Shown here one piece after another: positions 122 to 29,700 of a DNA stretch of 47,274 bases. Under the pieces are notes generated by a model, which did no database searches, was not told the origin of the DNA, and saw only the letters and a program-made list of their open reading frames with translations. The first letter of the stretch is position 1. Every line of letters starts with the position of its first letter. Source of the DNA: Candidatus Micrarchaeota archaeon (GTDB lineage Archaea; Micrarchaeota; Micrarchaeia; Anstonellales; Bilamarchaeaceae); assembly GCA_040754495.1 (NCBI GenBank), contig JBFMCO010000042.1:1-47274 (forward strand), in the 5' to 3' direction. Position numbers and translations under genes: made by a program.

Positions 122-1006
122 TCAATAAGTGTTTCTAATTGGGCAGGTTTCAGCGTCATCGACCTCGAGCCTTTTTTGTTGCGGATCGGTCTTGGAGGCT
201 TTTTCAACATTTGCACGGGCAATGGAGTGGTATTCCTCCAGAATTTCTATCCCGATATAGTTCCGTTTTAACTTGCGAGCGACAACTGCCGTGGTACCAG
301 AGCCCAAAAAGGGGTCTAAAACGATGTCTCCTGGCTTAGAGAACAGTTTGATAAACCAAGCTGGGAGGTCTTCGGGGTATGGAGCGGAGTGGTTTTTGTT
401 AGCACACTCCGTAGGGAGGTGAAGAACATTGGTTGGATAGACTGTATCTTTACCGACCCAATTAGCAATTCTCTTGCCAAAACCACTCTTGGATTTTGAC
501 TCGTCACGGATTTTATCGACTTCACTCAGTTTTGAGAGACGCTTCTCCGCCCATGAACCCATGGGAACTTTTACTGCCTCTTGGTACATTTTGAATTTCT
601 TGGTTTTCGTGAAATGAAGGCAACGCTCCCAGGCGTCCCTAAAACGATTGGGCCACTTGCCAGGGTAACAGTTCTTTTTATGCCAGATATACTCTTCCGT
701 CCACAGCCACCCCTGGTTTCTCATTTCCAAGATTAGTTCAAGGACGTAAGTGTGACGTTCCCCCTTGGCGACCCGTTCTTTGATGTTTAATACGAAAGAG
801 CCGTCGGGTTTGAGCACCCTCAGTAGCTCCTTCGAGAGGGGTAAGAACCACGCTACATACTCGTCCATGGGAATGCCGCCGTAGGTTCCTTTGCGGTTGT
901 CTGCGTAAGGCGGCGAGGTTACGACTAAATCGATACTGTTGTCGGGGAATTTCTTGAGCACCTCGAAGCTGTCCCCCAAGATTATCTTGTTCACGTCCAT
1001 CTTCAA
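122..1006 (-). CDS. site-specific DNA methyltransferase, beta class (N4-cytosine/N6-adenine)
   Basis: Catalytic TSPPY near the N-terminus and SAM-binding DPFLGSGTT near the C-terminus (beta order). Also GDSFEVL, LKPDGS, YIWHK and HSAPYP motifs. Start is TTG 1006 or ATG 1000. Confidence 0.95.
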   Translation of the reverse strand: MKMDVNKIILGDSFEVLKKFPDNSIDLVVTSPPYADNRKGTYGGIPMDEYVAWFLPLSKELLRVLKPDGSFVLNIKERVAKGERHTYVLELILEMRNQGWLWTEEYIWHKKNCYPGKWPNRFRDAWERCLHFTKTKKFKMYQEAVKVPMGSWAEKRLSKLSEVDKIRDESKSKSGFGKRIANWVGKDTVYPTNVLHLPTECANKNHSAPYPEDLPAWFIKLFSKPGDIVLDPFLGSGTTAVVARKLKRNYIGIEILEEYHSIARANVEKASKTDPQQKRLEVDDAETCPIRNTY

Positions 1007-2995: not shown

Positions 2996-3060
2996 AAATT
3001 ATAAACCATCGGCCCGTCCCGGGCCGCCGTCCGAACGCGCGCGCGTTAGGTATTATAAAA
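2996..3060. promoter_or_regulatory. divergent archaeal-type promoter region between the HAD gene and cassette 1
   Basis: AT boxes aaattataaa (2996-3005) and tattataaaa (3051-3060) flank a GC-rich spacer with a 6-bp inverted repeat (3011-3025) and a 14-bp palindrome aacgcgcgcgcgtt (3034-3047). Confidence 0.5.
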
Positions 3061-3117
3061 GCGAACCAATATCTCTTAACTGAGCCAAGGTGCTCGCCCC
3101 GATAAAGGTGGTCTGGC

Positions 3118-3459
3118 ATGGTCAGAGCCAATATCCCTTCGAAAATCACGCCTGGCGGCGGCGCGAAGCCGCCTGAGCACGACGAGTCGGACATAGACGA
3201 ATTGGAGAAGGTCGCCCTCGAGAGGGCGAACAAGGCGCTATCCGCCATAGAGAACGCCATCGCGGTGTGGGAGCAATCGGCTGAGAAGCCGGACGAGCTG
3301 CGGCCGAGGATAAACCGGCTCAAGGCGATACACGACGCCCTGGCCAACTGGGAGAAGAAGGTGCTGAAGAGCATGGGAAAACCGGACATGGCATCCAGGA
3401 TAGAGAACCTGCGGGAGTTCAGCGACATCTGCTTCACGTACTCCCGCGTCCATGGGTAG
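3118..3459 (+). CDS. small alpha-helical partner protein 1 (paralog of 26404-26742)
   Basis: 113 aa. About 34/76 identities to 26404-26742 over the core (W..EKPD.LR, HDAL..WE.K.L.SMG, R.E.LREF). Stop is 6 nt before the G1 ATG. Confidence 0.9.
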   Translation: MVRANIPSKITPGGGAKPPEHDESDIDELEKVALERANKALSAIENAIAVWEQSAEKPDELRPRINRLKAIHDALANWEKKVLKSMGKPDMASRIENLREFSDICFTYSRVHG

Positions 3460-3465
3460 TCGTAT

Positions 3466-6400
3466 ATGGCACAAACCCAGAGAGGCGGAGCGCCGGGAAG
3501 ACGCGTCGAGACGGCAGAGCAGGAAGTCCTCAGGGAGCTTGCGCTGCCGCTTCCGACCGTCAGGGCGCCGCCTCCGGACGTGCTCAGGCCGCTGCAGACA
3601 GCAATCAGCGCCGCGGAAGGGAGGGTTAACGACTTATTCAGGCTCGGGCCGGAAGTGGACCGGCGGGTCGGCGTTAGCCCGGACAGGGAAAGGAGGCGCG
3701 AGGGGGAGCAGGAGAGGGCGAGGGCAGAGGAGAGGGCTGCCGAAGTGCCGCGCGTCAAGGGCTATCTGGATGTCATAAGGGGGCAGCAGCTCGGGGGCCT
3801 CGAGCAGCATGCCGAGCGGATTTACCAGACGGTCACCGAAGCGGACAGGCTGATACGGGCGGGAAGGAGGGAGGAGGGCCTCAGGCTCTACGAAACCGTC
3901 CGCCCGCAGGTCGGGCGGCTGTACCAGCTGCTTCCGATTGCCAGGGACATCGCCACGTCGGGCCTGCCCGAGGAGCAGCAGCGGACGCTCATCGGCGGGG
4001 CGAATGCGGCCATGTATTTCTATTCGCAGGGGCAGGCCGCGCGGGGCGACATCATCATGCAGAACCTCGAGACCTTCTCGAGGCACAGGGACACTCTCAT
4101 GCGGCCCGAGGCCCGGCTCGCAAGGATGACGATAGTGGCGACCGTCGAGAACCTGTCCGACAGGAGAAGGAGCATCACCGAGGAGAACCTTGGGCGCGCG
4201 CAGAGGGACGCGACCCAGATGGAGACCACCCTCACCCAGGCAGAGAGCGAGAGGAGGGAGCTCGCGGCCCAGGCGTTCGCCCACCAGTCCGAATCGCTCT
4301 ACACGTTCTACGGCACGGCTTCCCCGGAGATGAGGCAGCGCATCGACCAGGCGAGGGAGTACCTGGACGGCCTCGCTACGAGGCTCCGCGCAGGCGAGAC
4401 GGTTACGGACGAGGAGCTGCGCAGGGGCGCGATGCTGACGCAGGCCATGCATCTTGGCATCGGCGTGCTGGACGGCATCGAGTCCACGACGGAAAAAAGG
4501 CAGGTGGAGAGCGTCTATCTGGCCGCGTTCGACGTCCTGCTCACTGGCGGGAATATCGACACCCACAGCTCGATAATGCTGGCCGCGCAGGACATCACCG
4601 GCCCGCGGGGAAACGCGGCGCTCCGCCGCTCCCTTTCCACGGCCGCGACTGCATACAGCACGGCGCTCCGCAGCCCGGATGCGACCGCCGACAGGAAGCA
4701 GGCTGCGGAAGGCGCGCTCATCGGCGTTTATGCAAGGCACGTTTCAGGGAGGCTCGGGACTGCATCGTCAAGCCTGACCGGGGACATGAGGACGAGGGCG
4801 GATGCTCTCGCGGCGCCGCTCACCGAGCACCCGGAGACCGCGACGCTCGACCAGCTCCGGTTCGCGAGGGCCGGGACCGAGGTGCTGGAGAGCAGAACGA
4901 GGCATTTCGGAAGGGCGTTCAACCCGTCAGCGCCCGTGCGCACCGGCGCCGACGCCATATACGGGCGCGCGCTCGATTCGCTCCAGAGCGGCGGCAGCGT
5001 GGACATCGCCATGGCGCAAAGCAGCCTCGCCGAGAGGTACGTCCAGACAGGGGACGAGACGAGGAGGACGAGGCTGGAGGGGCTCTCGGGACGCCTTGCG
5101 CAGAACCCGCGGGAGCTGAGCAGCGTCATGTTCTACATCGACGCGGATGCGCGTTCGCAGGAAATCAGGGACGCCCTGCCCTCGCTTCCTGCTGCGGCGA
5201 GGGCGCAGGGACAGCGGCTGCTGGAGGGCCTGGATGCCATGATGGCTACGATAGCCAGCGGGCAGCCGCTCGTCGATGACGGCAGGGTCCTCCAGGCGAA
5301 GACGGAAATGCTTGCAAGGATGGAGAGGGACGCGGGATTCTCCCAGCAGATAGAGCAGACCGCGAGGGTCCTCATGATGCAGACGCCCGGCATGACGAGG
5401 GACCAGGCGCTGACCGAGATAGCGAGGGCCCAGGCGACAGAGGCCGAGATGCGCAGGGGGGAGGAGATGCTCACCACGCTCTCGACCATGACCGACCTCG
5501 TGCGGTCCGCGCGCGGAAACCCGGCGAGGCAGGCAGAGATTGCGGAGATATTCTCGGTCGGCGTTGACGCGCTGCTTGCAAGGAACACGGCGAGGGCCGC
5601 CACCATACGGCAGACGGCTGCGCTTTATCCGCGCTTCGCGACCGACGCCGACCGGCGCTCGGTGCTCGCTGCGGTGCGCGGCCTCAGGGACGGCACGGTG
5701 CAGGAGGAGAATTTCGGCGCTTACATGCAGGTCCAGAGCCAGAGGGCCGAGTTCGAAAGCAGCATTACCGACCCGGCCCTGAAGAGGAACTTCCGCGCTT
5801 ACATGGACCTTGCAGCGCTTGCTGCGCTCCGCGGCGACAGGCTCGAGAGGGAATCCGTACTTGACCTGGCCGTCATGTACGCAAGGTGGGCCTCGGTTCC
5901 CGCGAACCAGGGGGGCGTCGCGCTCATGGAGGCGCGGAGCCGCGGGATGGAATTCGTGCAGCAGAGGCTGGGCGACTACCGGCGCAACCCGGACATACTT
6001 GCAGGAAGGAGGCTCATAGACGCCGGCCAGGCAAGGAGCTGGACGCCGCGCGCCGGGACGATTACCGCTGAGAATGCGCCGCTCACCGCAGCCATACTCG
6101 GCGAGGGGAGCATCAGCGAGGCCGTTGGAGGCGGGGACCGCGTCGCCGGCGTGAGCGCACTTACGGCCCTTCGCAGGGACACTTACACCCATCTTGCCGC
6201 GTCCGAGGACGCGGACTGGGAGAGGAGCCTCGCGCGGCTGGAAGGCCGCACGCCGGCGGAGCAGAGCGCGGTGGAAAGGAGGTGGACGCGTGAGGCAGCG
6301 CGGCTGCGCCGCGAGGCCGCGAGCGCGCGGGCGAGGGGCCAGGAGGCGCTCGCGGTGCATTACGAGCGCCAGGCCGAGCTGGTGGACCCGCAGTTCATGC

Positions 6401-9400
6401 ACGAGGCATTCACCGTCGCGCGCAGCGCATACGCTGAATACCGCACCGAAGAGAGGGCGGCAATCGCGTTCAGCGACGAGGCCGACAGGGCCAGGGACGC
6501 GGATATAACGAACGTGACGACGCTCGCGACGCGCACCCGGGAGATGATAGGGGAGATGCCCGAGGCCCAGCGGGCGGAGTACGAGGCCAGGCTGAGGCAG
6601 GCCGGGACCGACCAGGCGGCGCTGAGGACTCTGTACCTGGACGTGATGAGGGTCCGCTCGGAGCAGCTTATCAACGGCCTGCCAGAGGGCCTGCAGGCGA
6701 CTGCAAGGCAGAGGCTGCGGGATGCCGGAAGCGACGAGGCGGGCATGAGGAACGTTTATGTCTCGCTGCTGCGCACGCATGCCGGGATGCACGCGGCGAG
6801 GGGAGAGGAGCTTCGGACCGCGGCTATGAGGATACGCGACGACATGGCCTCCCTGGACAGGGGCGTGAGGCTGACCACGGTCCATCGCACGTCCGGCAGG
6901 TTCCAGCTCGCAGTCAGCATCCGGACCTCGATGGCAGTCGCGGGCGGCTACGACTGCGACTTCCTCGGGCGCCCCATCGAGAGGGAAGAAACCACGCCGG
7001 GCGGCGAGACGCGCAGGGTGAGGGTGCCGCTCACGAGGCCGAGGGCGGCCCAGCTCACCGCACAGGCGTCCGCGGCATCGCGCGTGGGCCGCGGCGCCGT
7101 GGACTTCCAGGTGGCCATAGAGAGGCGCCGCGACCGTGCAAACGCGGTGGAGAGGGCACAGCTCACGCAGGACATAGGCCGCTTCAAGACGCTGCTCACG
7201 ACCATGATAGACTCGCTCCCGGAAGGGAACCGGCAGCAGTACCGGGACCTCATGACGCAGGCAGGCGACGACCCGGCCATGCTCCAGGAGATATTCCGCC
7301 GCCTCGGCAACGAAGGAGTCAGGACCCAGGACGACCAGGGCCACGAGTATGCTGACATAGAGGACAGGGCCGGGGACGCCCGCAGGGCTATCGGCCTGCG
7401 CTACGCGGAGAGGTTCGGCGCGGCGGACGCGCTCTCGAGCAGCTCGCGGTCCGACTTCCGCGGCGGCGTGCTCCAGGCCCGCAACTGGCTGAGCGACCAG
7501 GCCGTAGCAAGGCTGTACAACAGCTCGACCGGGACGCAGATAATAGGCGTGGGTACCCTCGACCTGAGCTACACTTCGGCCGAAACCGGCCAGCCGGTTA
7601 CTGTGCAGGTAACGAACATCACGCCGAGCTCCGAACTCATAGACAACATGATACAAAAGCTTCCGCCTTCCTCCGAGAGGGAAGCGCTGAGGCAGAGGCT
7701 GCTGGCCATGCCGGCAGGGCCGGCCGGAAACGACCAGAGGCAGGCGCTGTTCAGTTCCCTCCTCGACAGGGAGGTGTACGACCCACGGCGGGCGCCCGGC
7801 ACCGGTGTCACGTTCAGGGCGGTCATCGAGAGGGGGGACAGTTTCTATTATCATGCCAGCGAGTACGACCAGCAGATTGCCGAGGCCAGGGCTCTCGGGC
7901 GCAGCGGCAGGGGAAGCGAGGCCCAGGCAGCGCTAGACCGCATCGAAGGGGACATGGGGCGCTCCGAAATCGCATCCCGCTCGGACGCGAGGGAGCTCGG
8001 GGCGCGGCACACCGCATGGGAGACGCGCAGGAGGGAGGAGGGGCTGCGGGGCAGGTACACCGAGGGCCTGCCAAACCAGGAGGAGCATCCCCGCAGCTAC
8101 GGGGAGGCGCAGGACCGCAACGATGCCGTCACGGGCGACCATGTGAGGCTGAGAGATGGCAGCAGGACGAGCCTGTTGGGGCTTTACGAGGGCAGCATGG
8201 AGCGCGGCGCTGCGGACATGGACAGGCTCGCCGACAGGCATGGAGGTGTCCGCGACACCATCCTCGCCGGAGGGCAGATGCTCCAGCCCACCGTGGAGGT
8301 GGCTGTAGCCTTGGCCGCTGCTCTCGCTGACAGCCCCCGCGACCATACGCTTGCCAACGGAAGGACGTATGCCCAGATGCTGAACGACCTCACCCTGCCG
8401 GGCTCCCCCCAGGAGCAGGCGCAGAGGGCCGCGGCGCTCTACCAGGCAATCATGGACAACCCGCAGGATTTCGCGGCGGCAGCTCGGATAATCAGGGAGG
8501 GCCATGACGACCGCGGATATACATATGTTTCCGGGCTGAGCAGTGACCTCGTCACCCAGCTCGACGTAACAGCAGACGAGATGGCGACTTACGGCAGGCA
8601 GCGCGAGAGGGAGAGGACCTGGGCGTTCGCCGATACCCACCTCAGGAGGGGGCAGAGCGAGCACAGGCTGGGGGACAGCTCTCATCGGTACAGGCGCGCG
8701 ACGAGCGAGAGGCACAGGGAGGACGAGGCGCGCCTTGGCTGGGCCCCGCACTACCAGACCGCGGAAACGCACTGGGAGAACGCAGCGCGCGAGTATGAGA
8801 TGGCCGCGACCATGCTCCTTGAGGGAAATGATACCCGGTTCACCGACATCGTGGTAAGGAACGAGCCGGTGACCGCGCCCATGTTCGAGTTCCGCGGCAG
8901 GGCTGCCCGCGAATGGCATTATGACGGGCCTGCTTACGTGACCGTGTATTCCGAGAACCGAGGGACCTTCGGGACTCTTGGAAGGCTCCAGCCGAGAGTG
9001 CTGAACATACCCGAGGAGATGTACAGCCTGACAAGGCGCGAGGCCAGGGAGATGGCCTCTTACACCGATGACGACATCCGGGGCGAGGCGAGGCAGAAAT
9101 ACGACCAGATGGGGATAAGCCGCGTCAGGCTGGAGCTGGCCACATACGGCATCGGCACAAGATGGCACGAAGAGGAGGGCGGAGGATACTGGGGCCTTTA
9201 CCGGACGAACATGACCCCCGAGGCGCAAAGGCTGGCGAACGAGGCCTTCCAGCACGGCGAGGCGCTCTGGGACCAGGTGTCTGGAAGGATTTTCGCGCAC
9301 TCCTCGGACTGGGGCGACGACTATGTCATGGGATTCCTGAATAGGACCGCAGACAGGTTCGCGTCCGACCTGAGCGCGATGGCGGCGGCCGAGGGCGAGA

Positions 9401-12400
9401 ATCTTGCAGGCGCAAGAGAGGATTTGCGGCTCTCCGTGCCATTCGAAGTCAGGAGCGGCCGGCTCTACGACCCTGATACAATCACGCGCTCCAACCTCTC
9501 GGACATGCAGTACTGGCAGGGAGTCCAGGAAACGGTGGAGATAGGCGGGAGGATAATCGTCGGCGGGCTGAGCATAGCCCTCGCGCCGGTCACGGGTGGA
9601 GCCTCGCTGGTCGGCGTCGTGCTGCTCGGAGCCGAGCAGGTGGGGCAGGGCTTCGAGATGCGCGCGCAGGAGGGAAGATGGACCGGCCGCGCGGTCTTCA
9701 CTGTCGTCATGGGCGGCGTGTCAATGGTATTGCCGTTCACGGTTTATCTTGCGGAAGCGAGCCAGGTGGCCCAGGCGGTGAACCTTGTCGCGCGCGGGGC
9801 GACCGAGGCCGAAATCGCGCTTGCCGGGGCGACCATGACCTCGAGGCTTGTCCAGGCCGGCGGCCTCTTATACATGGGCGTCGGCATGGGGGATTACCTC
9901 ATCAACCAGCTGCCGGGCGAAATCGACGCCGTGCAGCGCGGGGACAGGCTCTGGTGGCAGGCCGCGGCCGGCGGTCTCTTCCAGACAATCCAGCTTGCGC
10001 AGGTGGGCATCTCCACCTACCGGGGGGCCCAGGTGCAGAGGCAGGGCGGCATACCGGTCTACCGCTCCTGGGGACGGCAGGTGTTCGAGGCGCTCACGAT
10101 GGGCGAGGCGTTCTACACGCGCGAGCAGATGTCGGCCGCGCGCGCGTACCGGACGATGACGACGGAACTCGGCGCGCTTCCCGCCCCTGCGCGTGCATCA
10201 TACGAGGCTTACAGGACCGCACTCGGCGAGCGCGGAATACAGCTTCCCCCCGCGGACCAGGCGCGGCTTCTGACCGGATACCGCGAGGCCGTCGGCCGCG
10301 ACTCGACCATGACCTTCGAGCGCTACGTGCAGACGCCGGAGTACAGGGCAGGAGTGCATGAGCAGGCTTACAACGCTTTCGGCGAGGGAAGGGTTGGCGC
10401 TCATCAGCTCAACGACGAGGAATTCACGTACATGTGGGAGCGCTCGCACGGCTCGCGCGACTCGGCCCAGGCCGAGGCGAACGTTGCCACCGTGAGAGGG
10501 AACGAGCGGATGCAGGCCGGCGAGGCCGCCCTGCGCGACGTGTTCCAGGGGAACAGGACGCGCGCGAGCTTAGACCCGCACGAGCGTGCGTATGTCGAAT
10601 CAAGGCTGCAGGGCCGCCCGCCTACCGAGGCGCTGGCTGCTGCGGACGCCGCAGCCCCGCCGACCAGGGCCGGGGACATGCGCGCCCGCGGCGAGGAGGC
10701 CGCGAGGACGCGCGAGTTCACGCAGGCCAAGGATTTATACGAAGGCGAGATGATCCCCATAATCCCCGGGGGCGCCGAAGAGACGACGTACAGCCACCCG
10801 TCCGAGCCGGGCGTCCAGTATCCGCGCGACCAGATGCAGGCCGCGCGCGACATAGCCGCGACAGCGGAATTCATGATACGGAACGGGAACAGGCTTCCGC
10901 CAGGCATAGCCGCGGACAGCCCGGTTGCTGCACGGGCGCGCGAGCTTGCAGGCACTCCGGAATCGCCGACAGCGTTCAGGCAGTTTGCTGAGCGGCCGGC
11001 AGAGCAGGGGGGGCCGAACCGCGGCGCGCAGATGAGGCTCGCGCTCGAGCAGAGCGACAGGATGCCGCAGTTTGCAGAGAATGCAGTTGACCATGGCATA
11101 GCCTCGACGATGGAAGGGGCGGCAAGCGCGCGCGACCTGAATCAGGCAGAGAGCGGCTCAGCGACGGTCAGGGCGCTTTCGCTTGGGGAAGGATATGGCG
11201 AATTCACGCGCGGCACCCTCACAGAGCAGAGGGCGCGCGAGCTGGGCATAGGCCCGGATGAGATGGCTCTCTTCCAGAGGATGAGGGGCGAGAACGCGTC
11301 GCCGCGCCAGGCCGGCGCGGAGTTCGCAAGGAGGGCGGCTGCCGAGACCAGCGAGAGGGCGCTCGGCGATGCGGTGCATACGGAGTTCAACCAGAGGGCA
11401 GGAACCTTGGCCGAGCCGGCACGCGGCGCTGCGGCGGTAAGGGCCGAGAGGCTCACGGAAGCGTATCATGATTATAATGAGATTAACCTTTCCAATCTCG
11501 GCGCGCCCGAGAGGGCCGCGAGGATTAACGAGGTGCGGACTAGGCTCGGCCTCAGCGACGCCGAGCACGGGTTCCTGACGGCCCGGCTGGGGCTCGAGCG
11601 CGCCGAGGTCGGGCAGGACATCGCAAGGGCGGCCCTCGGGGAGATTCCGCTCGAGAGGCCTGCTGCAGCGCCGCGCGGCGAGGAGGGAAGGACCGGGCCG
11701 AGACCCGAGGAGGCCCCGCCCGTATCGCGGACAGCTGCGATGGAGGCCGAGGTCGGCAACATACGCGGGAGCGAGGCGCTCGAAGCCGGGCTGCGCGGCG
11801 CCTCCGCGGAGGTCGTACGCATAGCGCGCGTGCTCGAGGCGATGGCGCCCGGCGACACGGTGCTCAGCCAGCAGAGGCTGGGGGAGCTTGCAGCCGAGCA
11901 TCCGGAGTACGCGAGTCACATCGAGGCTTACAACAACGCGAGGCCTGAGGAAAGGCCTTTCCTGGCCCGGAGATATGCGGAGGAAATCGCGTTCGGGAGG
12001 AGCTCGCGGGCATTCGAATCCGTGGCCGGACAGCGCGTCACCGGACGGCAGGCGAGCGTCGAGATTGTCGAGGACGCAAGGCTGTTCCACAGGGCCCTGA
12101 ACGGCAGGGACATGACGCCGGCAGAGATGAGCCGCATAACCACCGAGCACTTTGACAGGTTTGAGCGGCTGAGGAGGGCGGGAATGGGCGAAGCCGATGC
12201 CATCCTCCAGGTCGGCCGCGAGATGAGGACCGAGCGCCTGATGAGCGAGCGCGGGATGAACCGCGACCAGGCGACAAGGTTCGTCAATGACGAGGCCGCG
12301 AGGCCGCACGACGTGCCGCTGCGGCCGGAGGAGGGCCTCGGCGAGCAGGACTTCAGGGCCATGCCGTCCGAATACAACACGAGGACCATCACGCTGCCCG

Positions 12401-15400
12401 ACGGCTCGACCACCACGCTAGCCGACGCGCAGAGGGCCAGGCTCATCCGCAGGATTGACAACACCGAGGACTCGGTCGGCTCCACGGCAGGCGTCTGGGT
12501 CGCAGAGATAATGGTGAACGGCCAGCCGAGGACCGTGGCCGTCAAGGTGTTCAAGGACCCGTACGTTCCTGGCGGACAGCAGAGGACGGCCCAGCACTGG
12601 GAGAACCTTTTTGAATTCGTCACGGGCCACCCGGCAAGGGCAGGCGAGCATGCGGAGATGGGCGAGGCCGGAAACCTCTCGGCAATTTCCGGCATGACGT
12701 TCAGGTCAGGCGACGGGAGGGAGCTTCCTGTCGGCCCCGGATTCTACGGCTTCGTGAACGTGGATGGCAACATCGCGGTCGCGATGGACCTGCTGCCGGG
12801 CATGTACATCGGAGACATGAGCCCGACGCAGATACGCGAGTTCGTCCGGCCTGACACTTACGCACAGATACAAAGAATCGGAGAGACGCTCCAGGCGAAC
12901 GGATACGGGATGCATGACTTCCAATTCATAGTCATGTTCCCGCCCGAGTCCGCGATACCGACCGGGCTTACCGGGGCCGCGCGCAGGCAGTTCATAGAGA
13001 ACTGGCGCACGACAATAAACGGCAGGGAGGTCCGCGCAGGGGACGTCGTGCTCATGGATGCCGGCGGGCTTTACCGCGCGGCAGACGAGCCTATGTCCAC
13101 GTTCAGCCCCATAAGGGAGGCGGAAAGGGCGCGCAGCACCGCGGACCAGGTGCTCGTCAACGACGCGCTTGCGAGGACAACCGCGACGGCAGCGGACGCG
13201 AACGCGCCGGGCAGGGCCCAGGCGCAGGCAGACCTGCAGGTCATGGAAGGGTTCATGAGGGAAGTCGAACCGATGGTGAACGCCAGGGACCCCATGGCCG
13301 AAGTTACGCGCCGCTACATGATAAAGAGCGACAGGGCGGACGCCGCTGCTGCAAGGCTCGAGCAGATTCGCGCGAGCGACCCGGCACGGGCCGAGGCAAT
13401 CGAAGGGGCATTCAGGAGATTCGAAAGGGAAGCAGGGCTGCCGGAAGGAAGCATGCTGCCGATGAGGGCTGAGGAAGCTGCCACCGTGCCGCGCCGCGCT
13501 GCGGTTGGCGCTGAAGAGACTACTGTAATAGAGCCCACGAGGCCGTCAAGGGCCCCGACGCCCCCGCCTGGCGAGGGGACGGTCCCGGGAAGGGGCAGGA
13601 GAGGGCCGCCGCCAACCGAAGAAAGGACTACCGCTCCGACAAGGAGGCAGCCTCCGCCAGAGGAAAGGACTGGCACTCCGACCAGGAGGGAGCAGCCGCC
13701 TGGCGAAGGGACAAGGCCGGAACGCAGGGGAGCGCCGGGCGAGAGGCCCGCGGAAGGACCTCCTGCGGCGGAGGTCACCGCTGCTCCGAGGTCGCTCCTT
13801 GACGACATCAGGGGCGGCGCGGGATTGCGCGATGCCATTGACAACCTGTTCGGAGTGGACTCCAACCTCGCAAGGAGGCTCGAGCGCAGGCTCGAGGTGC
13901 TTGAGCAGGACCCGATGTTCGCCGAGCGGTTCAGGGTGGCGACGCCGGAGGAGCGCGCGATAATCGTGGAGTCCCTGGCGAGCGGCATGTCGCCGGCCGA
14001 GGCGTTCCGGAGGATGGCAGCCGAAGGCGCCCCGAGGACAGCCGCGGAATTCACTGCATATGCGGACAGGCTCGCCGGAATGAGCGAGCCCGAGCGCCTC
14101 CTCAGGATACAGGACATAGCCAATTCTGACCCGAGGCTCGGGGAGGCCCTGCTCAGGATGAACCGCGAGACCAACCCGGCAAGAAGGGCGAGGCTCGCTA
14201 CAGAATGGGAAGGGGCGGTGCACGAGCGTGCGCGCGTGCAGGAGGCCCAGGAAGCAAGGGCCGCGCGGACGGCCGATGACCTCCGCACCCAGGAGCTGGA
14301 CATGGTGACGCGGGCCGCGCAGGCGAGGGGTCTTGATACGAGCATCATGACCGAGCTGTACTCGAACGGCGGCACCGAAGGCAGGATGGCCGTGCTCGAA
14401 GGGCTCGGCGTGGACATGTCCCGGTTCAATGCGGAGAGGACAAGGATAGAGGCCATGCCTCCGGGCGATGCCAGGAACACGGCGCAGCAGCGCCTCGACA
14501 CGATGGTGCATGGATTCTTCGAGCTCATGACAAGGGGCGGGCTCGAGGGGCACATAGCTGCCATGCCCGGATACGAGGGCGCGACTGTTACCGGCGTCGA
14601 ATTCCGCGGCGGCATGAGGGGCGTCTATGAGGTAACGCTTTCCAACGGGAGGAGGGTATTCGTAAAGAGCGAGGACGTCGCGCCGGCGCGGTTAGGGCGC
14701 GACCTTGCTGTGGCCGAGGGAATGTGGACATCCCGCATACACGAGGGATACTCATACGACACCGGCCTGACTTACCGCGACGGCACTCCCGTGAGGCAGG
14801 AGTTCGGCATACTCGAGGATATACACGACGTCCGGGGCACCCAGATAACGATAAGGCTGCCTGACGGCTCGACAGAGCAGGTGCGTGTCGTCGGAGTCTC
14901 GATGCTGAGGGACGAGGTGCTAAACGTGCCGCAGCCCCCGCCGCCGGACGCTTCTCCAGAGGTGGTGCGCGCATACGAGCAGAGGCTCGCGGCATTCCTC
15001 GCAGACCCGGTCGTGCAGGAGTTCTACAGGCTCTCCGGGAGCGAAGGGGGGAGGGACAGCATATTCCAGGCCTGGAGGGCGTACCAGGAGATGTCCAGGC
15101 GCGCGGTGCTCGGCGACAGGTTCGCGAGGAACACCGCTGCAGTCATCGTTGAGCGCGCAGACGGCAGCAGGGTTCTTACATTCCAGCCAATAGACATGGA
15201 CGCTGTCGGCTGGAGGGTCGGCTCGAGGCCGGACGGGACGCCGGGCTTCACCGGGCTGAGGACTGATTTCGCCGAGGCGAACGTAGACTTCCTCACCAAG
15301 TTCTCGAGCGCCACGGCGGCCGCGTCGGGCCACGGCCTTATCGGCGGCCGCGTGGACGGGGGGACTCTGCTTGGCAACATGTACAGCCCCACGGCAGAGC

Positions 15401-18400
15401 GCGGGGCCGCGATACCGCCAGACTCGCCCGCAACAAGGCAGAGAGTCGGCGAGATACTTGATGGCCATGACGGCAGGTACTTCGGCGCGGGCTTCGACAC
15501 GACATCCCCGGACATGCCGGCAGTCGGCGAATTCATATCACACGGCGGCAGCGACAGGCCGATAGGAAGGAGCGACGGCCGTGTCGTGCTGCATGCTGAT
15601 GACATGCGCGGCGTTACGGACGCAGCGGCGACGCCGGCCGAGCGCCAGGCGTTCGACCAGGCAGTGCGCGACGAGCTGACGCGCAGGTTTGGCGGAGGCG
15701 GGCGGCCGCCTGGAGGCGGAGGGGGCGAGCCACCGCCCGGTCCGCGAACGACGCCCGAGCGCAGGGGGGGAAGGCCTCCAGGCGAAGGGCAGCCGCCTGG
15801 CGAGAGGACTACCCCCGGAAGGCGCGGGGCGGCCCAACAGGAGCAGCGCGCTGAAGAGAGGACGATGACCGTCCGCGACAGCGACATAGTGGAGGAGAGG
15901 ACCGCTACAGGGGCAAGGCGCGGCCGGGCGGCGGAAGAGAGGACAATCCCTGTCACGACGGACATGATTGTGGAGGAGCGGACAGTCCCGAGGGCGCCGC
16001 CCGTTGAAGAGAGGACCACTCCGCAGAGAGGAGGAGCAGAGCAGCCGCAAGAAGCCACAGTCCCGCGGCCTGCAGAGGCGCAGCCTGCCGTGGCGCCCGC
16101 TCCGGTCACGCGGATGTCACCGGTGGACCTTGTCCAGCCTGACAACCTCGGCGCATTCGCAGGCAGGCTGAACGCAGGCGATGCTACGGCAGCCGCGGAC
16201 CTTGCCGCGATGCCGCCTCAGGTGCGCGAGCAGGTGGGCATTTTCCAGGAAAGGTATGCAGCCGCGGCAGGGAACGCACAGGAGCAGACGCGCATCGCAA
16301 CCGAATACGCGGGCAGGATTCTCGCAAGCAGCCTCGCATCGAGCCCCGAAACGCTCTGGCGGTTCGCGTCGAACTTCAGGTTCGGCCTTGAGAGCAGCCA
16401 GGTCACGCCGCAGGCAAGGGCCATGCTTGACAGCCTCCCGCCCGCAGTGCGCGACCTGGTGATTGAATTCGGCGGCAGGCTTTACAGAGAGTGGAGCCAC
16501 AGGGACGCCCTCGCGCCCGGATATGCCGACAGGATGACGCGCGCGGTCGATGCCGCGGCAGTCGCTGACATGTACGCGCTCCACACGCAGGGCCGCCCGC
16601 CAGCCAATCCGGCGGACAGGGCGGCGATGGAGTTCATCACCGCTGGCGGCACGAGGACGATAGACCCATCTACGCCGGCCGGAGCAAGGGAGATAGACGC
16701 GGCCGTGCAGTTCAGGAGGAGCGCCTCGCGGCTCGTCGAGAGGGACGGAGCCGCGGCGCTGGAGTCCGCGAGGACGCTCGGGGAGAGCGTCAGGACCGGC
16801 GCCAGGCCGGCCGATTTCCAGGGCGCGCTTGCGTACGATGCCGTGCAGGATTTGGCGCGGGCGAGCGCGCAGCAGGCCGGCAGGGCGGTTCCCGGCGCGC
16901 AGGACTACTTCAATGCGGCGGCGACATTCAGGCTTTTCGAGCAGGGCGGGCTTCCCGACACGGCCACGGTGAGGACTCCGCACTTTTCCGGAGGCAACGA
17001 AGCCCTGGAGCAGCACGGCACCGCGTATATAGACTGGGGAGGCCTGCAGGTCGAAGTCCACATTTTCCGGGACAGGGTGAACGTGTTCAGCGTGGAGCCC
17101 GCGGCCATCGGCGAGATGGGCTGGCCTACGAGCGGGATGAGGGAGGCGCTCGCCCGGTACGCGCAGAGGCGTCTTCGGGGGCCGCTCGAGCGCGCCTTCA
17201 GGGGGACGATGCGCCAGATTCCGAGGGAGACCGGAGGCGGGTACGACGTCTGGAGGCCGGTGATGGATTCCATCCAGGCCACAACGCTCGACCTGACGCA
17301 GGGGAGGCTCGCTACGGCACCGCCGGCCGTTGCAAGATACACGCCCGAGGAGATTGTGCGCGTTCACAGAACCGCTGATGTCGCCGCGAGGGGCGAGGCC
17401 GCGGCGGCGTTCCTTGAGATGTCCCCGCAGGACCAGCAGAGGACGCTCGGCCTGCTGCGCGAGAGGGCGAGGCCGCTTGAAGAAAGGGCGGCCGCGCTGG
17501 AGGCAGAAGCCAGGAGGCTCGAGGCCCAGGTCATGCCGGAATATAATAGTATACTTGAGAGGAAGGCAGCCGCGGAGGCCGAGGCAACGAATTATCAAGA
17601 GCAGGTGAGGGCGCTCGACCCGCAGATAAGGGCGGCAGAGCAGAGGGGAGACATGGCAGAGGTCTCCAGGCTGCGGGCCGAGAGGGGCAGGCTGGACGGC
17701 CTCGCGGATGAGAGAAGCACCGCGGCCAGGATGCTGGAGGGCGAGGCCGGGCGGCTGATGCGGCGCGCGAACGACCTGCGCGAGCAGGCGGGCGAGCTGC
17801 GCGCAATGGCCGGCTACTGGAACGAGCAGGGGATGTACTTCAGGGAGCTTGCAGGCCTCGGAGGAGAGATTGGCACTTACCTTTCACAGAGATACGGGGT
17901 GCCGCGGGAGGAGCTCGCGCGCGCATATTCCGCCCAGCCGACCACGGCGGAGGCGAGGCGGGCGCTTTATGACGCGCTCGGCATAAGGCTCGGCGAACTC
18001 CCGGACGCCGCGGTGAGGAGCGACGCCTACAGAAGTTTCACCAGCCTCGCTGATGACCCGTACATCGCAGGCATGATACTCACCGGGGACCTGCTTCGCA
18101 ATGTCGAGGGGATAGTGAGGCCGGACATAGACCCAACAAGCCTCCAGCCCGGAGACCGGGTCGTGGTGCGCGGAATAGACTTCCAGAACGGCCTCGTCGG
18201 GGCGTACCGGCTCACCATTGAAGTCGTTGACAGCCAGGGCAGGCCGCGCACCTTCAGGGACGTGAGCGGGAGGGAGCGCACCTCGATGACCCTCTTCGCC
18301 AAGAGGCAGGGCCTCAGCCCCGATGCCACGGGAAGCGAGGGCGGCAGGCTCACCGGAGCGCCCTCGCCGGACATACTTACAAGAGGCGCGGACGGAAGGG

Positions 18401-21400
18401 CGCTCGTCTATGTCTCGCCCGAAGGGCAGAGAATAGAGTACGGCCTCATGCGCGACATCCGGGACTTCCACGGCCAGATAGATGCCGGAAGGGCACTCAC
18501 CGACTCGCAGGGAAGGCCTGCCAGGGTGGATGTAAGCGTGGATGCCGCCGAAGACCTGTACTCCATAGTATTCTCCTCCGGCAACCCGAGGACGACCGAG
18601 GCGCGGGACCAGCTTTTCGGCGAGTTCCGCGACCATCCGGAGCAGTTCCTCGAGGCCCTCGGCTATGCACAGACAGGCTTCACTGCCGCTGGATTCTACG
18701 ACAGGCACGAAGGCAACGTGTGGGCGATGTGGCTGCGGATAAGGAACCAGCCGGCAGCCGAGGCTGCGCACATCGCGCACCAGCTCGAAAGCCAGGGCTA
18801 CCGCGTGAGGGACAACGGGGATGGCACATGGAGCTTCCTTCGCTTTGGCGCCATAGACTCGGACACGTTCGGCCAGTATCGGGCATTCAGCATGCCCGAC
18901 GGGCAGATTTCCCTCGCCCCGATGAGGGACCAGCTGGTGACGGACCTGCACAGGGTGTTCGTGCACCTGACATACGAAATGAACCAGGCCGAGATAGCCC
19001 GGGCGCACGCCGAAGGAAGGCCGCCAAGGCTTCGGACCGTGGAGGAAGTCACCACCATGGCCTTCGGCGAGAATATGGACGGCCCGTGGATGCGGGGCAT
19101 GAGGCGCTGGGTTTCGGAATTCGCCCCGGACACCCCTGCAGGGGCGCGCTTCAGGGCGGACATGCATTCCCTTTTTGACGGCTACAACGGACAGCGTTCA
19201 GGCATGGGCTTTGCGATGGAGGGGGCGCAGCTCGGCCGCTTCGAGGCGCAGGGCTATGAAGAGATACCATCGGCGCTCAACGGCATGCCGACCACCCACC
19301 TGGACGGCATAGACGGCCGCACGAGCTTCATGGCGAACGGGCGGATGGCGACCAACCCGAGCATAAGCGAGGCCGCAAGCCCGCGCGTCCGGGCCGCCCT
19401 GCCTGACGGACAGGACAGATATCTTGTGCGTATTGACGACATGGGCCGCTCAGAGCGCAGGCAGTTCCTGAGCAGCCTCGAAGCGAGCGGAGTGAGCACC
19501 GCGAGGCTGAGGACCTCGGCCGTCGGCGGAAGGGAATACATAGTCTTCTCAGACTCTGCGGCGATACCGCAGGCGATGTACGGAAGGACTGTCGCGGTGA
19601 GGCGCGATGGAGACCGGGTGTTCGTCAATAATTATGGCGCTCTGCTCACCGCTATTCCGGAGGGAAGGGCCGCGTACGTAGTGCCGCTTGCAGGCATGGG
19701 CAGAGTCGAGGCCCGCAGGCTCAGCAGCGCGCCCGGCGCCAGGGTTCTCGAGCTCAGCATCGGAGGCGAGCAGAGGTTCGTGGTGTTCGACAGCCCGCAG
19801 GCCGTGCCGGAGAGGCACAGGGACAGCGCCATGCAGGTCCGGAGAAGCGGGAGCACCATACTAGGAGATGCCAGGATGCGGGAGAGTATGGGCATAATCA
19901 ATACCAGGGACATCGGAGCAGCCCCGATGTTCGACGGCATGATGAACATGGGAGATGCCGGATGGACCGGGCTCTGGCAGGGAGTCAGGGACGGGGTGCT
20001 GAGGGCAGAGGCAGGCGCCAGGGCGGCTCCGGATGCCGGCTTCCTGCAGAGGAGAGTGCCGAACCCTGGCGACACGCAGGCGCTTCCTCCGGAATACGGA
20101 GGGCCCGGCCGGACGATTCCTGTTTCTGAAAGCGACCTCATCCCGCAGGGCAGCCCCCCGAGGCCGCCCCCTCAGCCGCCCGCAGGGGGCGGCGGGACCA
20201 GGAGGGGAGTCGCCCCGCCGGCAGAAGAGGGCCAACCCCAGCCGGCCAGGAGACAGCCCCCACCACCGCCGCAGCCGAGTGAAGGCAGGGGGACCGTGAG
20301 GATGGCTCCGCTCCCTCCTGCGGACCAGATGGCCATGCCCGGGCCGGCGCAGGTCCCGCGCGAGGGGGGAACACCTGGCGAACGCGCGGATGCGGCACAG
20401 ATGGCAGGACGGCTCATCGCCGGCGACCCGAACGCCCGGACGCAATTCACCGGGAGCTCCCAGGGAATGCAGGATGCCGTAGGCTTTGAGCTGGCGCAGC
20501 AGCTCAACCTGACAAGGCCGGGAGACATTGCCAATTTTGCAAGGGACGTCGCCCTCTACGAGCTCCACAGGACCGGGGAGAGACCCATCACCGACCCTGC
20601 CGTGCTTGCGCGCGTCGAGAGGAACGCAAGCCTGCACGCGCTCCTTCCCGAGAGGGTGAGGACGGCTGTGAGCGGCCTTGCCGGGAACAGCGCGTTCATA
20701 CTCAGCGCGAGGGGCACCGACAGGGCATTCGAAAGATATGTGGGCAACCGGAGGCTGGGCGGCGCGCTCGTAGGCGGGGCGCAGCGGGAGATTGCCGGGG
20801 CGGTCAATGCGCACTTTGCGGCCGGCCAGGGAGCTGGGCCCAGGATTCAGATTCCCCAGCAGGAGCTTGCACGCATCTCCGCAGACCTTGATGCCGCAGT
20901 GAGGACGGGCCAGCCGACGGGCTCTGTTGTGGCGATAACCGCATTCGCCGAGCAGGGCGTCTATCGGGTGATAATCGAGCGCGCGGACGGGACCCGCACG
21001 CCTTTCATATACAGGGAGCGCCCCTTCAGGCAGGAAGCTTTCGGCTCGGAGCTTTATGCCGCGGCCGGGCAGCAGGCACCGCATTTCATACGCCTGGGCG
21101 AAGGGCCCGACGCGAGGGCGCTGCAGGAGGTCGTCGGCGAGATGGACTTCCGCACGGCGCTGGCGCAGGGCAACCTGACCGAAGCAGAGAGGCAGTCGCT
21201 ATTCCGCGAGGCCGGGAGGCTCGGCATGATTGATTATGCGCTCGGCCTGCCTGATTCCCATGCTGGGAATTATGTCGTCGTGAGGGGGGAGGGAGGCACC
21301 CTCAGCCTCATGAGGATTGATTTCGAGAATGCCGGCATCGGGTGGGGGAGGGGCATACGCCCGGATGGCAGCGTAGGGAACAGGGACCACGTGATTTTCT

Positions 21401-23205: not shown

Positions 23206-23228
23206 ATCCTTGTTTATGGCAGGAAGCG

Positions 23229-23238
23229 TATATAAATA
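23229..23238 (-). promoter_or_regulatory. TATA-like box for the TIM-barrel gene
   Basis: tatttatata on the minus strand with an A-rich upstream stretch, ~25 nt before ATG 23205. Confidence 0.5.
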
Positions 23239-23272
23239 GTGTGGTTTTTTGTTAAAAAAATTGTAAGTATGT

Positions 23273-23878
23273 TCAGACCGGCTTCCCCGGGGACCACGCC
23301 GTGATCCCTTCGAGGCCAACAGGAGCCTTCGGCTCTGCCATCCTCATCGTCCTGAGGCTGCTGTCATAGACCGCGACGAGCCCCTCCTTCTTCGCGTCCT
23401 CCTGCCCGGCGCGGGCGAGAGCAGACTTGAGCTCCGACTTGACCTCGGCCCAGTCGAGCGAGGCCTCGGCCTGGATTGACATCAGCCTTTTCTTCACTAT
23501 GACGCGGCGCTTCATGTCAGCGATGACGATGTAAGTGTTGTTGGCGGTCTCCATCAGCGCGATGCCGAACGCTTCCGTGTTCCGGGGGAGCGGGGCGTTG
23601 TGCACCAGGCTCAAAACGATACTGCTGATTGAAAAATCGGCGTCACTCGAATAATATTGCGCGGCCCCCCCGCTGCTCACAAGCATCATGGGGGGGATGC
23701 CAAGCAGGCGCTCGAGCTCGGCGTCCCAGTTCTTTCCGAGGGCAGACAGGCGCCTTACCAGCTCGGATGAAGTGACGTGCCCGGTCTGCCTGGATTGGAC
23801 GAGCGGCTCGGCCGCCTTATCGAAAGGCCTTTTCGGCCCGTCCGCCTCCTTCTTCCGCTTCGAGCGCTCCCCTGCCAT
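23273..23878 (-). CDS. family-X hypothetical protein (copy X2)
   Basis: 201 aa. Aligns over its whole length with 46721->47272 (LG[KR]NWD.E.E.LL..PP, YYS.D..F.I, [FY]GIA, AD..R..IV, DW..[VF]K..LK.A, VAV[YH]D..LR). Confidence 0.85.
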   Translation of the reverse strand: MAGERSKRKKEADGPKRPFDKAAEPLVQSRQTGHVTSSELVRRLSALGKNWDAELERLLGIPPMMLVSSGGAAQYYSSDADFSISSIVLSLVHNAPLPRNTEAFGIALMETANNTYIVIADMKRRVIVKKRLMSIQAEASLDWAEVKSELKSALARAGQEDAKKEGLVAVYDSSLRTMRMAEPKAPVGLEGITAWSPGKPV

Positions 23879-26358: not shown

Positions 26359-26374
26359 ATTAATATATATTTAA
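26359..26374 (+). promoter_or_regulatory. TATA-like box upstream of cassette 2
   Basis: attaatatatatttaa ~30-40 nt before ATG 26404 in an otherwise GC-rich context. Confidence 0.5.
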
Positions 26375-26403: not shown

Positions 26404-26742
26404 ATGGATTCGCCCGACTCGAGGCGGGATAATGGCCCGGCGCAGGAGCCTGTTCCGGAGTTCGAACTGGTCACGGAGAATAACATAGAACGGACTGAGA
26501 GGGACATACTGGTCAGGGTGAACAGGAGCATCTCGAGCTTGGAGTCCGCCCTGGCTGGCTGGGATGCCGCAAAAGAAAAGCCCGATGATTTGCGGGAGGA
26601 GTACGAGAGGTCCAGGCTCCTCCATGACGCGCTCGTGGACTGGGAAACGAAGATGCTCCGGTCCATGGGCGAGAGGATGGGTTTTTTCGAGAGGGTCGAG
26701 AGGCTCAGGGAATTCATCAGAATAGTTGAAAGATACGCATAG
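26404..26742 (+). CDS. small alpha-helical partner protein 2 (paralog of 3118-3459)
   Basis: 112 aa, ~45% identical core with 3118-3459. Stop is 8 nt before the G2 start. Confidence 0.9.
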   Translation: MDSPDSRRDNGPAQEPVPEFELVTENNIERTERDILVRVNRSISSLESALAGWDAAKEKPDDLREEYERSRLLHDALVDWETKMLRSMGERMGFFERVERLREFIRIVERYA

Positions 26743-26750
26743 GCGAGAAT

Positions 26751-29700
26751 TTGGGTCCACCAGCCCAGAAGGAAACCCCCCAAGCCGGGGCTGCCGAAGC
26801 CCTCAGGACTGATGCTGCCGCCCTGCAGCCGAGGCTGCCCTCGCCTTTCCAGGCCGGCCAGCCGTCCCAGGTCGACCTCAACCGGGGCGCGGAGCAGATA
26901 CGGAAAACCAGCGGCTTCCTGAAAAACACCTCGCTCGGACTAAGCAGGGCCCTGCCGCCCGCCACGACAGGAGACATCAAGGAATTGGAGAACAGGGGCA
27001 ACGCGGCATTCGGGGGGCATCCTGAGGCGCGGACATTCCTCCAGAAGTTAGCGGGTTACAGGGAGCAGGCGGACGCCGCGAGCCGCGAGGGAAGGTACGA
27101 CGCCGAATCCATGGGGAAAGCGCAGCGTCTTGGCTCGGCTCTGAACGCCATTCTGGACGCGAACAACAGGACCGGCAGCGCAGCCCAGCAGGCAGCCGAG
27201 AGAGGCGACGAGACCTCCAGGCACGCCGCCACGGAGATGAAGATACGCCTTCCCCGCCTCTTCAGGATTTTGTCCGGGGAGACGCCGGAGAGCATCGAGA
27301 GGGCGCACGCAGCAGCCGACGTGACGATACATGCCGTGGAGAACCGCGATATCTACCGCCACGAGGGCAACAAGGGCCTTCTCTCAAGGGTCCTTCAGGT
27401 CCAGGAGCGGCTCACCAACGACCAGGTGCAGATGTCCCATGACGACATCCAGAGGGATATGAACGAGGTCTCCGGAAATTTCTATACTGCCGCGGTGAGG
27501 GCTCTTGGTCCGGCAGGCGGGGCGGCAGCGGCCATGATGGCCCAGGTCCAGTCCATGATGGCGTTCCAGACGGTCCGCGACATGATGAGGGGCGAGGCGG
27601 ACAAGCTGGAGAAGCAGCTGAAGGAGCTCCTCAAGGTCCTCGGCGACCCTGAGAAGACTGACGAGGAGAAGAAGAAGGCGCTCGCGGAGGCGGAGGAGGC
27701 GGTCCAGAAATTCGTCCTCAAGGCCCTTGACGCGCTGCTCAAGGAAATCGGAGCGCCGCCGGAGCTTGCCTCGGCGATAGGGAAGGCGGCGAAGTTCATA
27801 GGCACCGCGAGGGCTGGAATGCTCCTGCAGGCCGGCATGATGTACGTCCGGTACAAGGAGGCGTTCGACGAGAAGAAAGAGCTCCTTGACAAGCTGGTGC
27901 AGAACGTGAAGCAGCTGGCCGACGAGAAATTCAAGCCCGCTGCAGAGAAGATGAAGGAGATCGTAGGGGCCCTGCAGGACATCCACAGGGAGGCCGCCCA
28001 GCTCCACCAGAAGATAATGCAGGCGCGCATGCGGATGGCTGCCGCGCTCGGCCAGGCGCTCGGCGAGCTGAGGAAGATGGCTGAGAAGGAGGCCAGCAGG
28101 CCCCTCCGCGAGGCGATGGAAAAGCTCGGCGAATCCCTGCGTGACATGCTCCGCAGGCTGCAGAATCCGAAGACCGCGAAGGAGGTAGACGGGAATAAAT
28201 TCAAAAACGCGCTTGAGACCTTCGGATGGCTCAAGGCGATGACGAACCAGCTCGGCAAGATGCCATCCGACAAGCCCGAGCAGAAGAAGGACAAGGAGAA
28301 CGCCGCCCAGCTAGTCGCAAACGCAGTGAAATCGTCCATCAGGGACGCGCGGTCGGAGATGTCGCGGATGCTACAGTTCGTGGCAGGGGACTACCTGAAG
28401 ACTGCGGACACCGCTTACAAGGCCGCCCTTTTCTCGCTCGGGAACGCGCTCAACGAGGGAAAGAAGACGCTCGATGAGGCGAAGAAGGAAGTCGCTGGCA
28501 GGCTGCTGCAGGAAGGCAACGCCCTGCTTTCAGGGCTTGCAAAGCTCGGCGACGCCAGGCTAATCGAGCTTGTGAAAGGGCTTCTCCCCGGCAAGGAGAA
28601 GCCCGAGCAGGAAACCATGGAGAGCATATTCAAGGCCCGGCAGGCCATCGACATGGGCTCGTTCGCCCTCAAGGAGGTCGCAGGGCAGAAGGCGGAGCAC
28701 GTGAAGACGACCGCGCTCGGCTTCGTCAAGGGCGCGCTCGGCCTCCTTGGCAAGGGGAACTTCGCCGACGCCTCTGCGCTTTATGCGACCGCCCAGCAGT
28801 ACATAAGCTCGCCCGAGACACGGAATGAGATTGACAAGAAGCTGACCGGGCTCCGCAAAGCCGTCCAGGAATTCGAGAAAAGCCCAGCGGCTATGCGGAA
28901 CACGATAGACATAGGAGGCGCGCTGAAAGAGTCGCTCCGCAAGCTGCACCTCGATGCGAAGTCGCTCGGCGAACGGCTCTCCTCAGGCGAGCTCGTCTCT
29001 CCCGAGGAAGTGGCCGCAGTCGAGAAGAGGTTCAAGTTCGCGGAGCAGGCAATAGCAAGCCTCAGGGCGGGCGCGGAGGGCGCGGTGAGGAAGGCGGCAG
29101 GCGAGATTTTCGCGCGCGGCCTGGACGCGCTAGCGTCCGGCAATCCGGCCGTTGCTGCCCTCCATAGGTTCCTCGGCGCTGAATGCATGAAGGGCAACGC
29201 CGCCTACAGGAAGCAGCTCGAACAATGGAGCGCGGGCGTGGCAAGCGGCGAGATGAAGATGGAGGACGCCGTGAAGCAGGCCGCATCGCGCCTTGCAGGC
29301 GAGCTGGGAAAGATTCCCGCATGGAAGAGCCTTACCGAATCCGGCATCACGGATTCCATCAAGGCGCTGATTCAGAGGGGCAGCGCGCCCGATGCCACGC
29401 TCGCGGACTGCGAGAACATGCGCAGCGCCCTCGACCTTGCCGGGGAGTATCGCGCGGGCATAAGGAAGGCGACGGACAAGGCCGGGCTTGCGAAAGTGTT
29501 CGCCAGGGCATTCGCCGGCCTGGCGAGGGGCTTGTCCCCGGAATACGTCGATGCCCAGGCAAAGCTCGCACGCTCTTATATGGACCCGCCGGCCTCGGCG
29601 TTCGTGAAGGCGGAGGCGAGGCGCGCCCAGATTGAAGCCGTTTCCGCCAGGATGGAGGACGTCGGCCTTCTGAATGCCGTGCATGGCTTATTCACCAGGG

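Follow-up and report, generated by a model that had tools for sequence, protein, structure and literature searches.

A previously undescribed family of small helical proteins encoded directly upstream of giant and zincin-like proteins in Micrarchaeota, with a putative chaperone or targeting role

Genes encoding very large proteins in a Micrarchaeota archaeon are preceded by small genes that make up a previously undescribed protein family, and this association is a real and robust feature. We refer to the small protein as the partner and to the product of the gene that follows it as the cargo. One conserved partner family precedes unrelated types of cargo, namely multi-domain giants and HExxH zincin-like proteins, and our best reading, held with moderate confidence, is that the partner is a putative cytoplasmic chaperone or targeting factor for effector-like cargos. 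Micrarchaeota are tiny, host-dependent DPANN archaea, and we know of no account of how they act on their hosts. Being small and easily detected, the partner gene offers a convenient way to list candidate host-directed effectors in metagenome assemblies that are fragmented and in which giant genes are often broken.

Partner and giant genes of the window

The window, which is the whole stretch of 47,274 nucleotides that was analyzed, belongs to a Micrarchaeota genome of 1.63 Mb in 72 contigs with a G+C content of 59.5% and a completeness of 80%. Both of the small + strand ORFs that had been predicted are present upon ORF analysis and translation. Partner gene 1 (3118..3459, + strand) encodes a protein of 113 aa, recognized by the family profile (E 5e-62) and modeled by AlphaFold2 (AF2) as a three-helix bundle, and is the cognate of giant 1 (3466..21909, +), a lysine-purged protein of 6,147 aa with a class G2 N-terminus. 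Partner gene 2 (26404..26742, +), which encodes 112 aa and is supported by its ORF, by BLASTP and by the family profile, is the cognate of giant 2 (26751..46709, +), a protein of 6,652 aa with normal lysine content and a class G4 N-terminus. The short spacers that had been noted are also correct, with the TAG of partner 1 ending at 3459 and the ATG of giant 1 located at 3466 (6 nt), and the TAG of partner 2 ending at 26742 followed by a TTG at 26751 (8 nt). This TTG is probably the start of giant 2, which fits the collinear alignment of its closest homologue from residue ~25. Since gaps of 6 to 8 nt are too short for a promoter, each partner-giant pair looks like one operon.

Reading of the sequence indicates that Shine-Dalgarno (SD)-like motifs and TATA-like AT-rich boxes are located upstream of both partner genes in the window. 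For partner 1 there is a putative promoter box, ttataaaa, at 3053..3060 (+) and an SD-like aaggtgg at 3105..3111 (+), 6 nt before the ATG, which gives a duplex of -12.3 kcal/mol with an assumed anti-SD sequence. For partner 2 the TATA-like AT-rich box ttaatatatatttaa at 26360..26374 (+) may likewise serve as a promoter, and no comparable AT-rich stretch fits into the 6 nt gap before giant 1. As for the flanking genes, the sequence suggests a DNA methyltransferase-like gene at 122-1006 (-), a YbaK-like deacylase at 24883-25350 (+) and an RtcA-like RNA 3'-phosphate cyclase at 25355-26317 (+).

The two giants are related in a very uneven manner. They share a mid-region of 422 residues at 83% identity (window 12217-13482 versus 38358-39614), which its motifs suggest is protein-kinase-like, while their C-terminal thirds are about 33% identical (over the last 1,500 residues) and their N-terminal halves give one weak non-collinear match (24% over 628 residues, E 3e-5). 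The occurrence of a module at 83% identity versus no more than 33% elsewhere suggests that the giant genes recently exchanged a module or underwent gene conversion. Giant 1 has a helical-repeat N-terminal domain, hydrophobic segments near residues 2030-2096 and C-terminal modules that are kinase-like by our reading of their motifs. At E<=0.01 no Pfam family, LXG included, matched either giant, apart from a sub-threshold M24 match. The original prediction gave ~45% identity over 76 residues for the two partners; BLASTP instead aligns them over 88 residues with 42% identity and 67% positives (E 8e-24), so the figures change and the paralogy stands. It is also correct that the partners, at 42%, are better conserved than the N-terminal halves of the giants.

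Family membership, predicted fold and distribution

Searches of known families place the partners outside of all of them. A Pfam scan of both window partners at E<=1 returned just two unrelated sub-threshold matches, a sequence profile of the family found no relative in NCBIfam or the PDB, and across Pfam, NCBIfam and the PDB there was no match to DUF3130, DUF3958, WXG100, PE or LXG. Literature searches likewise found no description of the family. The three helices that had been predicted are present in the AF2 model of partner 1 at residues 23-53, 62-85 and 91-112, following a disordered N-terminal tail. The mean pLDDT of this model is 79.9 with 16 sequences, and partner blocks reach 94-98 with 78 sequences. 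The fold class is a generic one of three antiparallel helices of about 22-31 residues, and a fold search with the model found only designed or unrelated bundles (Foldseek against the PDB, E>=0.16; VIA Z<=10, which is common for helical bundles), with only matches below 0.9 in the ESM Atlas.

Alignment of the family defines a signature that, in partner 1 numbering, consists of E30, E45, A49, W51, K57-P58, L75, W78, L83, R94, L98, F101, I104-C105 and Y108, with E30, E45, K57 and R94 as its invariant polar residues. Both of the tryptophans that had been called conserved are indeed so, as W78 is invariant and W51 occurs in 76 of 78 partner sequences. The HDAL motif fared less well, since an exact HDAL is shared by the two window copies only; across the family the consensus reads F-H/Y-x-A-L, in which L75 is strongly conserved. 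Near the C-terminus there is a conserved motif L-R-E-F-x-D-I-C (L98-x-E-F101-x-D-I104-C105), and there is no FxxxD and no YxxxD/E-type motif. Y108 lies at most five residues from the C-terminus, nearer in most members, with no conserved acidic residue at +4. The net charge of the partner core averages about +1.7 with a range of -7 to +8.

The family is sizeable and narrowly distributed. A profile search against 1.84 billion representative proteins gave 217 clusters at E<=1e-3, of which 176 reach E<=1e-10, so the similarity among partners is far beyond chance. Among the best 150 of the 217 clusters every representative is 72-184 aa in length, with no fusion to a larger protein. A survey of the phylum found matches in 39 of 401 genomes. 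The window's own family accounts for 37 of them (76 genomes sampled) and its genus for 27 (28 sampled), and a single matching genome lies outside the family. Among sampled genomes the partner is thus nearly confined to one Micrarchaeota family. The proposal that the partner is a good marker gene is borne out, as a single profile recovers 10 paralogs in the window genome, and 51 of the 99 genomes searched from its family contain at least one copy.

Gene adjacency, cargo range and co-diversification

Analysis of gene neighborhoods involved 53 distinct pairs from about 40 genomes, drawn from the 10 copies in the window genome, 21 in near-complete relatives and the best copy in each of 29 further genomes. 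For 50 of the 53 distinct copies the next ORF on the same strand starts between -32 and +18 nt from the partner stop codon; 17 of the 53 cargo ORFs overlap the partner and 32 are at a distance of 0-12 nt. Among 31 cargos of readable length, 21 have at least 1,500 residues, 13 exceed 4,000 and the longest reaches 6,841, three have 585-690 residues (including one truncated at the end of a contig), and seven have 359-450 residues. Six of these seven short cargos belong to a single family, in which HExxH is conserved and which gives a weak SprT/zincin signal. The original prediction described a dedicated partner of giant genes and named homologs without an adjacent giant ORF as evidence against it. 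The standing of the partner as a conserved and dedicated neighbor of giant genes is upheld, but the restriction to giants is not, given the 7 of 31 cargos with just 359-450 residues. The partner is thus a marker of effector-like cargos in a broader sense, and not of giants as such. As a separate observation, contig 55 of the window genome (G000) carries at 16101-19017 (-) two tandem cassettes of a partner and a lysine-poor HExxH protein; these proteins have 373-399 aa and appear gluzincin-like (HExxH...NEGxTE), and genome G378 contains this pair of cassettes as well.

The converse analysis used a profile of the giants' N-terminal 400 residues to search 99 genomes of the window's family. This cargo N-domain was found in 38 of the 99 genomes, all 38 of which carry the partner, and in none of the 48 partner-less genomes. 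Genera with patchy occurrence agree genome by genome, with partner and N-domain present in the same 2 of 8 genomes of one genus (g4) and the same 1 of 3 of another (g15). When coordinates were matched by hand across the 99 genomes, about 69 of 72 N-domain starts had a partner match directly upstream. One of the remaining three starts is situated at the end of a contig, and the other two truly lack a partner. For example, a class G1 cargo of 2,827 residues (G157:C2:25101-26321) has no upstream partner and is located 9 kb from a partnered paralogous cassette, whose partner may act on it in trans. The window genome also contains other big lysine-poor proteins without a partner (e.g. C16, 2,828 residues), and these have signal peptides or belong to other families. 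On contigs 15, 16 and 67 there are giant ORFs of 3,427, 2,847 and 2,657 aa with about 0.5% lysine that are unrelated to the partnered cargos and have no partner gene.

Such tight spacing could also mean that the small ORF mainly loads ribosomes for the long downstream gene or autoregulates its translation or transcription, with the protein itself being secondary. This explanation draws on the very short or overlapping gaps (17/53 overlapping, 32/53 at 0-12 nt) and on the window, where the partner genes have stronger SD duplexes (-12.3 and -6.5 kcal/mol) than the giants (-7.1 and -4.4 kcal/mol). Over 31 pairs, however, the SD-like sites of the cargo genes are at least as good as those of the partners (mean duplex -6.9 versus -5.3 kcal/mol), and most cargo genes have an SD-like site of their own, located inside or just after the partner gene. 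Translational coupling as originally predicted therefore remains plausible from the spacing but is not obligatory. The partner protein itself, moreover, shows strong sequence conservation, including polar residues that are invariant, and a confidently predicted fold, and in the AF2 model its helices of 22-31 residues are unlike those of a helix-turn-helix DNA binder. We consider a role that is mainly one of expression control to be distinctly improbable. Partner 1 and giant 1 share a reading frame, with only the TAG and two codons between them (window 3457-3468). Programmed read-through or fusion was considered and rejected, as in-frame arrangement occurs in 16 of 53 pairs, which equals chance, and no fused form exists among the best 150 of 217 clusters.

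Partners and cargos diversify together, and it is the N-terminus of the cargo that the partner follows. Comparison by hhalign shows homology of the giants' N-terminal regions (residues of about 60-390) among classes G1-G3, with probabilities of 84-98%, and no clear relation of these to class G4, represented by giant 2, or to the zincin class. In the partner tree, classes S, G1 and G2 form one clade each, and the tree requires 7 changes of label versus 20.1 for shuffled labels, with 0 of 200 shuffles as low. Within the window, the partners likewise diverge with the N-termini and not with the 83%-identical central module, which has been retained or homogenized. This pattern of divergence fits a cognate relation of the partner to the cargo N-terminus. 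Co-diversification and co-occurrence would also follow from inheritance of partner and cargo genes as one cassette.

These results bear upon whether the partner could be an inhibitor, antitoxin or immunity protein by which the producing cell holds its own cargo in an inactive state. A small gene that is tightly linked to a potentially harmful enzyme-bearing protein, and that is made before it, would give protection first. Against such a role, one family precedes both kinase-like giants and zincins, and because the catalytic parts of these cargos are unrelated the partner cannot plug a common active site. The partner also tracks the N-terminal class and not the shared 83%-identical module, and separate paralogous convergent genes downstream of the kinase-bearing giants are better immunity candidates. 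We therefore regard an inhibitory partner as quite unlikely; a general escort fits better than a toxin-specific antidote when one family accompanies unrelated cargo types. The convergent paralogs lie 3' of giant 1 at 21886-23319, 23273-23878 and 23888-24502 (all -) and 3' of giant 2 at 46721-47272 (-), with relatives after a third giant on contig 22. The 477-aa product of one of these convergent genes has the shared domain at its C-terminus, and the paralogs are candidate antidotes for the kinase modules.

The manner in which a partner might recognize its cargo was addressed by comparing N-termini and by modeling. By eye, giant and zincin N-termini have in common a charged helix, a hydrophobic-Pro-x-R stretch and a second helix, and hhalign gives at most a weak N-terminal similarity between the zincin class and the giants (38 columns, E 0.0036). 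A universal N-terminal docking motif was considered but is not established, as a profile built on cargo N-termini of other genomes recovered just 1 of the 10 cargos in the window genome. Charge complementarity between the partner and the first 40 cargo residues was not found (rho -0.01). Residue P30 of giant 1 (window about 3553-3555) is conserved without exception in 24 giant N-termini and is seen again in the zincin class; the hydrophobic-Pro-x-Arg-type motif around it, which is not statistically established, could be a short docking or processing motif. We also modeled a fusion of partner 1, its TAG read as Gly, the two intervening codons and residues 1-401 of giant 1, with an alignment of 12 other natural in-frame pairs and 65 partner-only rows. 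The partner and cargo domains of this model are confident, with a helical-repeat array in the cargo from residue ~37 (pLDDT 83-97), and giant residues of about 1-36 are at pLDDT 43-55. Foldseek searches with the fusion model returned generic helical repeats only.

Lysine content, putative role and known systems

Lysine content distinguishes partners from most of their cargos. Under 2% lysine is found in 21 of 31 cargos and under 0.4% in 12; giant 1 has 19 Lys and 735 Arg among its 6,147 residues, versus 437 Lys and 513 Arg in giant 2. Partner 1, in comparison, has 10 Lys, and partner cores contain 3-21% lysine, mostly 6-13%, versus a genome background of 4.3%. Lysine-rich partners next to mostly lysine-purged cargos indicate that different constraints act on the two. 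Most simply, the partner would remain cytoplasmic and the cargo would go to where lysine is a liability. Alternatively, lysine depletion could result from sparing lysine in very large proteins, and some Micrarchaeota orders have been reported to lack lysine biosynthesis (PMC12892359). Lysine depletion was also considered as a mark of proteins with signal peptides, and rejected; such proteins are lower in lysine (median 3.9% versus 6.0%), yet extreme depletion is rare in both groups.

This contrast weighs upon the view that the partner is a co-exported subunit, which would form a stable helical complex with the cargo N-terminus and leave the cell or enter the membrane together with it, as in PE-PPE and EsxA-EsxB. 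Partner and cargo genes have the same adjacency, the same 1:1-type arrangement and the same co-diversification as would be anticipated, and small all-helical partners of such size are typical of ESX substrate pairs. However, lysine-rich partners and mostly lysine-purged cargos argue against a shared fate, and the partners have no WXG100, PE or LXG signature and no C-terminal YxxxD/E- or FxxxD-type motif. Export of the two together is unlikely in our judgment.

The evidence as a whole leans toward a helper that is kept in the cell, and away from an inhibitor. As a putative chaperone or targeting factor, the partner would be made from the same transcript as the downstream cargo gene and would bind the N-terminal region of the cargo. 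Bound partner may keep a very long helical cargo soluble or competent for export and may hand it to a putative export or membrane-insertion route, without traveling with it. We infer the physical binding, the binding site and any role of the partner in export. Around the 9 cassettes of the window genome that were inspected there is no recurrent ATPase or machine gene adjoining them, and a search of the 80%-complete genome for a type VII secretion system gave two sub-threshold P-loop matches to PF01580 and none to PF06013. In a bolder version, which is possible but rather doubtful, there would be an undescribed archaeal route of effector delivery for which the partner serves as recognition or targeting factor, and the partner gene would flag the whole exported effector repertoire of these Micrarchaeota. 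If true, the effectors flagged in this manner would include multi-kinase giants purged of lysine, zincin-like proteases and other proteins directed at the host archaeon, and Archaea would gain their first known effector-chaperone system.

The closest functional analogues of the partner are Lap1 (DUF3130) and Lap2 (DUF3958), which are targeting factors of LXG toxins in type VIIb secretion (PMC9600955; PMC10801868). Both are small, helical and cytoplasmic, their genes precede that of the LXG toxin, and the toxin needs them for its export although they are not themselves exported (PMC9600955). The likeness is in size (about 100 residues), in an all-helical structure, and in a gene directly upstream of a polymorphic effector, which here holds for 50 of 53 copies within -32 to +18 nt. 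Lap1 and Lap2 act on the N-terminal helical domain of the effector, and the trait of not being exported would fit a lysine-rich partner and lysine-purged cargo. There are also clear differences, as the partner has no sequence relation to these factors, falls outside of DUF3130, DUF3958 and WXG100-like families and lacks the FxxxD export motif that is conserved in Lap1. Additionally, there is one partner here and not two, its three helices are not a WXG100-like hairpin, the cargo has no LXG domain, and the host is an archaeon whose 80%-complete genome has no EssC-type ATPase above threshold and no WXG100 protein.

Other systems share a common logic with the partner, but not its fold, motifs or context. 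PE and PPE of the mycobacterial ESX (type VIIa) systems resemble the arrangement here in that the gene for a small helical protein directly precedes that of a larger and at times very large partner, and in their expansion by paralogy within a genome, with 10 partner copies in the present case. PE is secreted with PPE and carries a YxxxD/E signal, whereas the partners have no YxxxD/E motif and no Pfam PE/PPE match, and their lysine composition speaks against a shared fate. Class I chaperones of type III secretion (T3SS) and the Eag/DUF1795 and DUF4123 proteins of type VI secretion (T6SS) are small cytoplasmic proteins that are encoded next to an effector, are specific for its N-terminus and are left behind upon export. 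As with the partner, one helper family serves effectors with different enzymatic parts. These chaperones have alpha/beta folds, with class I T3SS chaperones being acidic dimers, whereas the partner is all-helical in its model with a mean net charge of about +1.7; to our knowledge no T3SS or T6SS is known in archaea. Phage tape-measure chaperones (gpG/gpGT) are small proteins encoded just upstream of a very long helical protein that they are thought to coat, and partner genes similarly precede very long, largely helical proteins. The context here is not that of a phage, however, there is no sign of a programmed frameshift product (in-frame arrangement, at 16/53, occurs as by chance) and the cargos include enzymes of 360-450 residues. 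Toxin-specific immunity proteins differ as well, in that the partner family does not vary with the catalytic domain of the cargo.

If the helper role holds, then the logic of a small helical escort paired with a polymorphic effector would extend from bacterial secretion to archaea, where it would use an unrelated protein family. What is new here is a partner tree that tracks the N-terminal class of the cargo, the contrast in lysine content and the SD-like sites that the cargo genes have of their own. The arrangement is of a known kind, now found in a domain of life where none was known.
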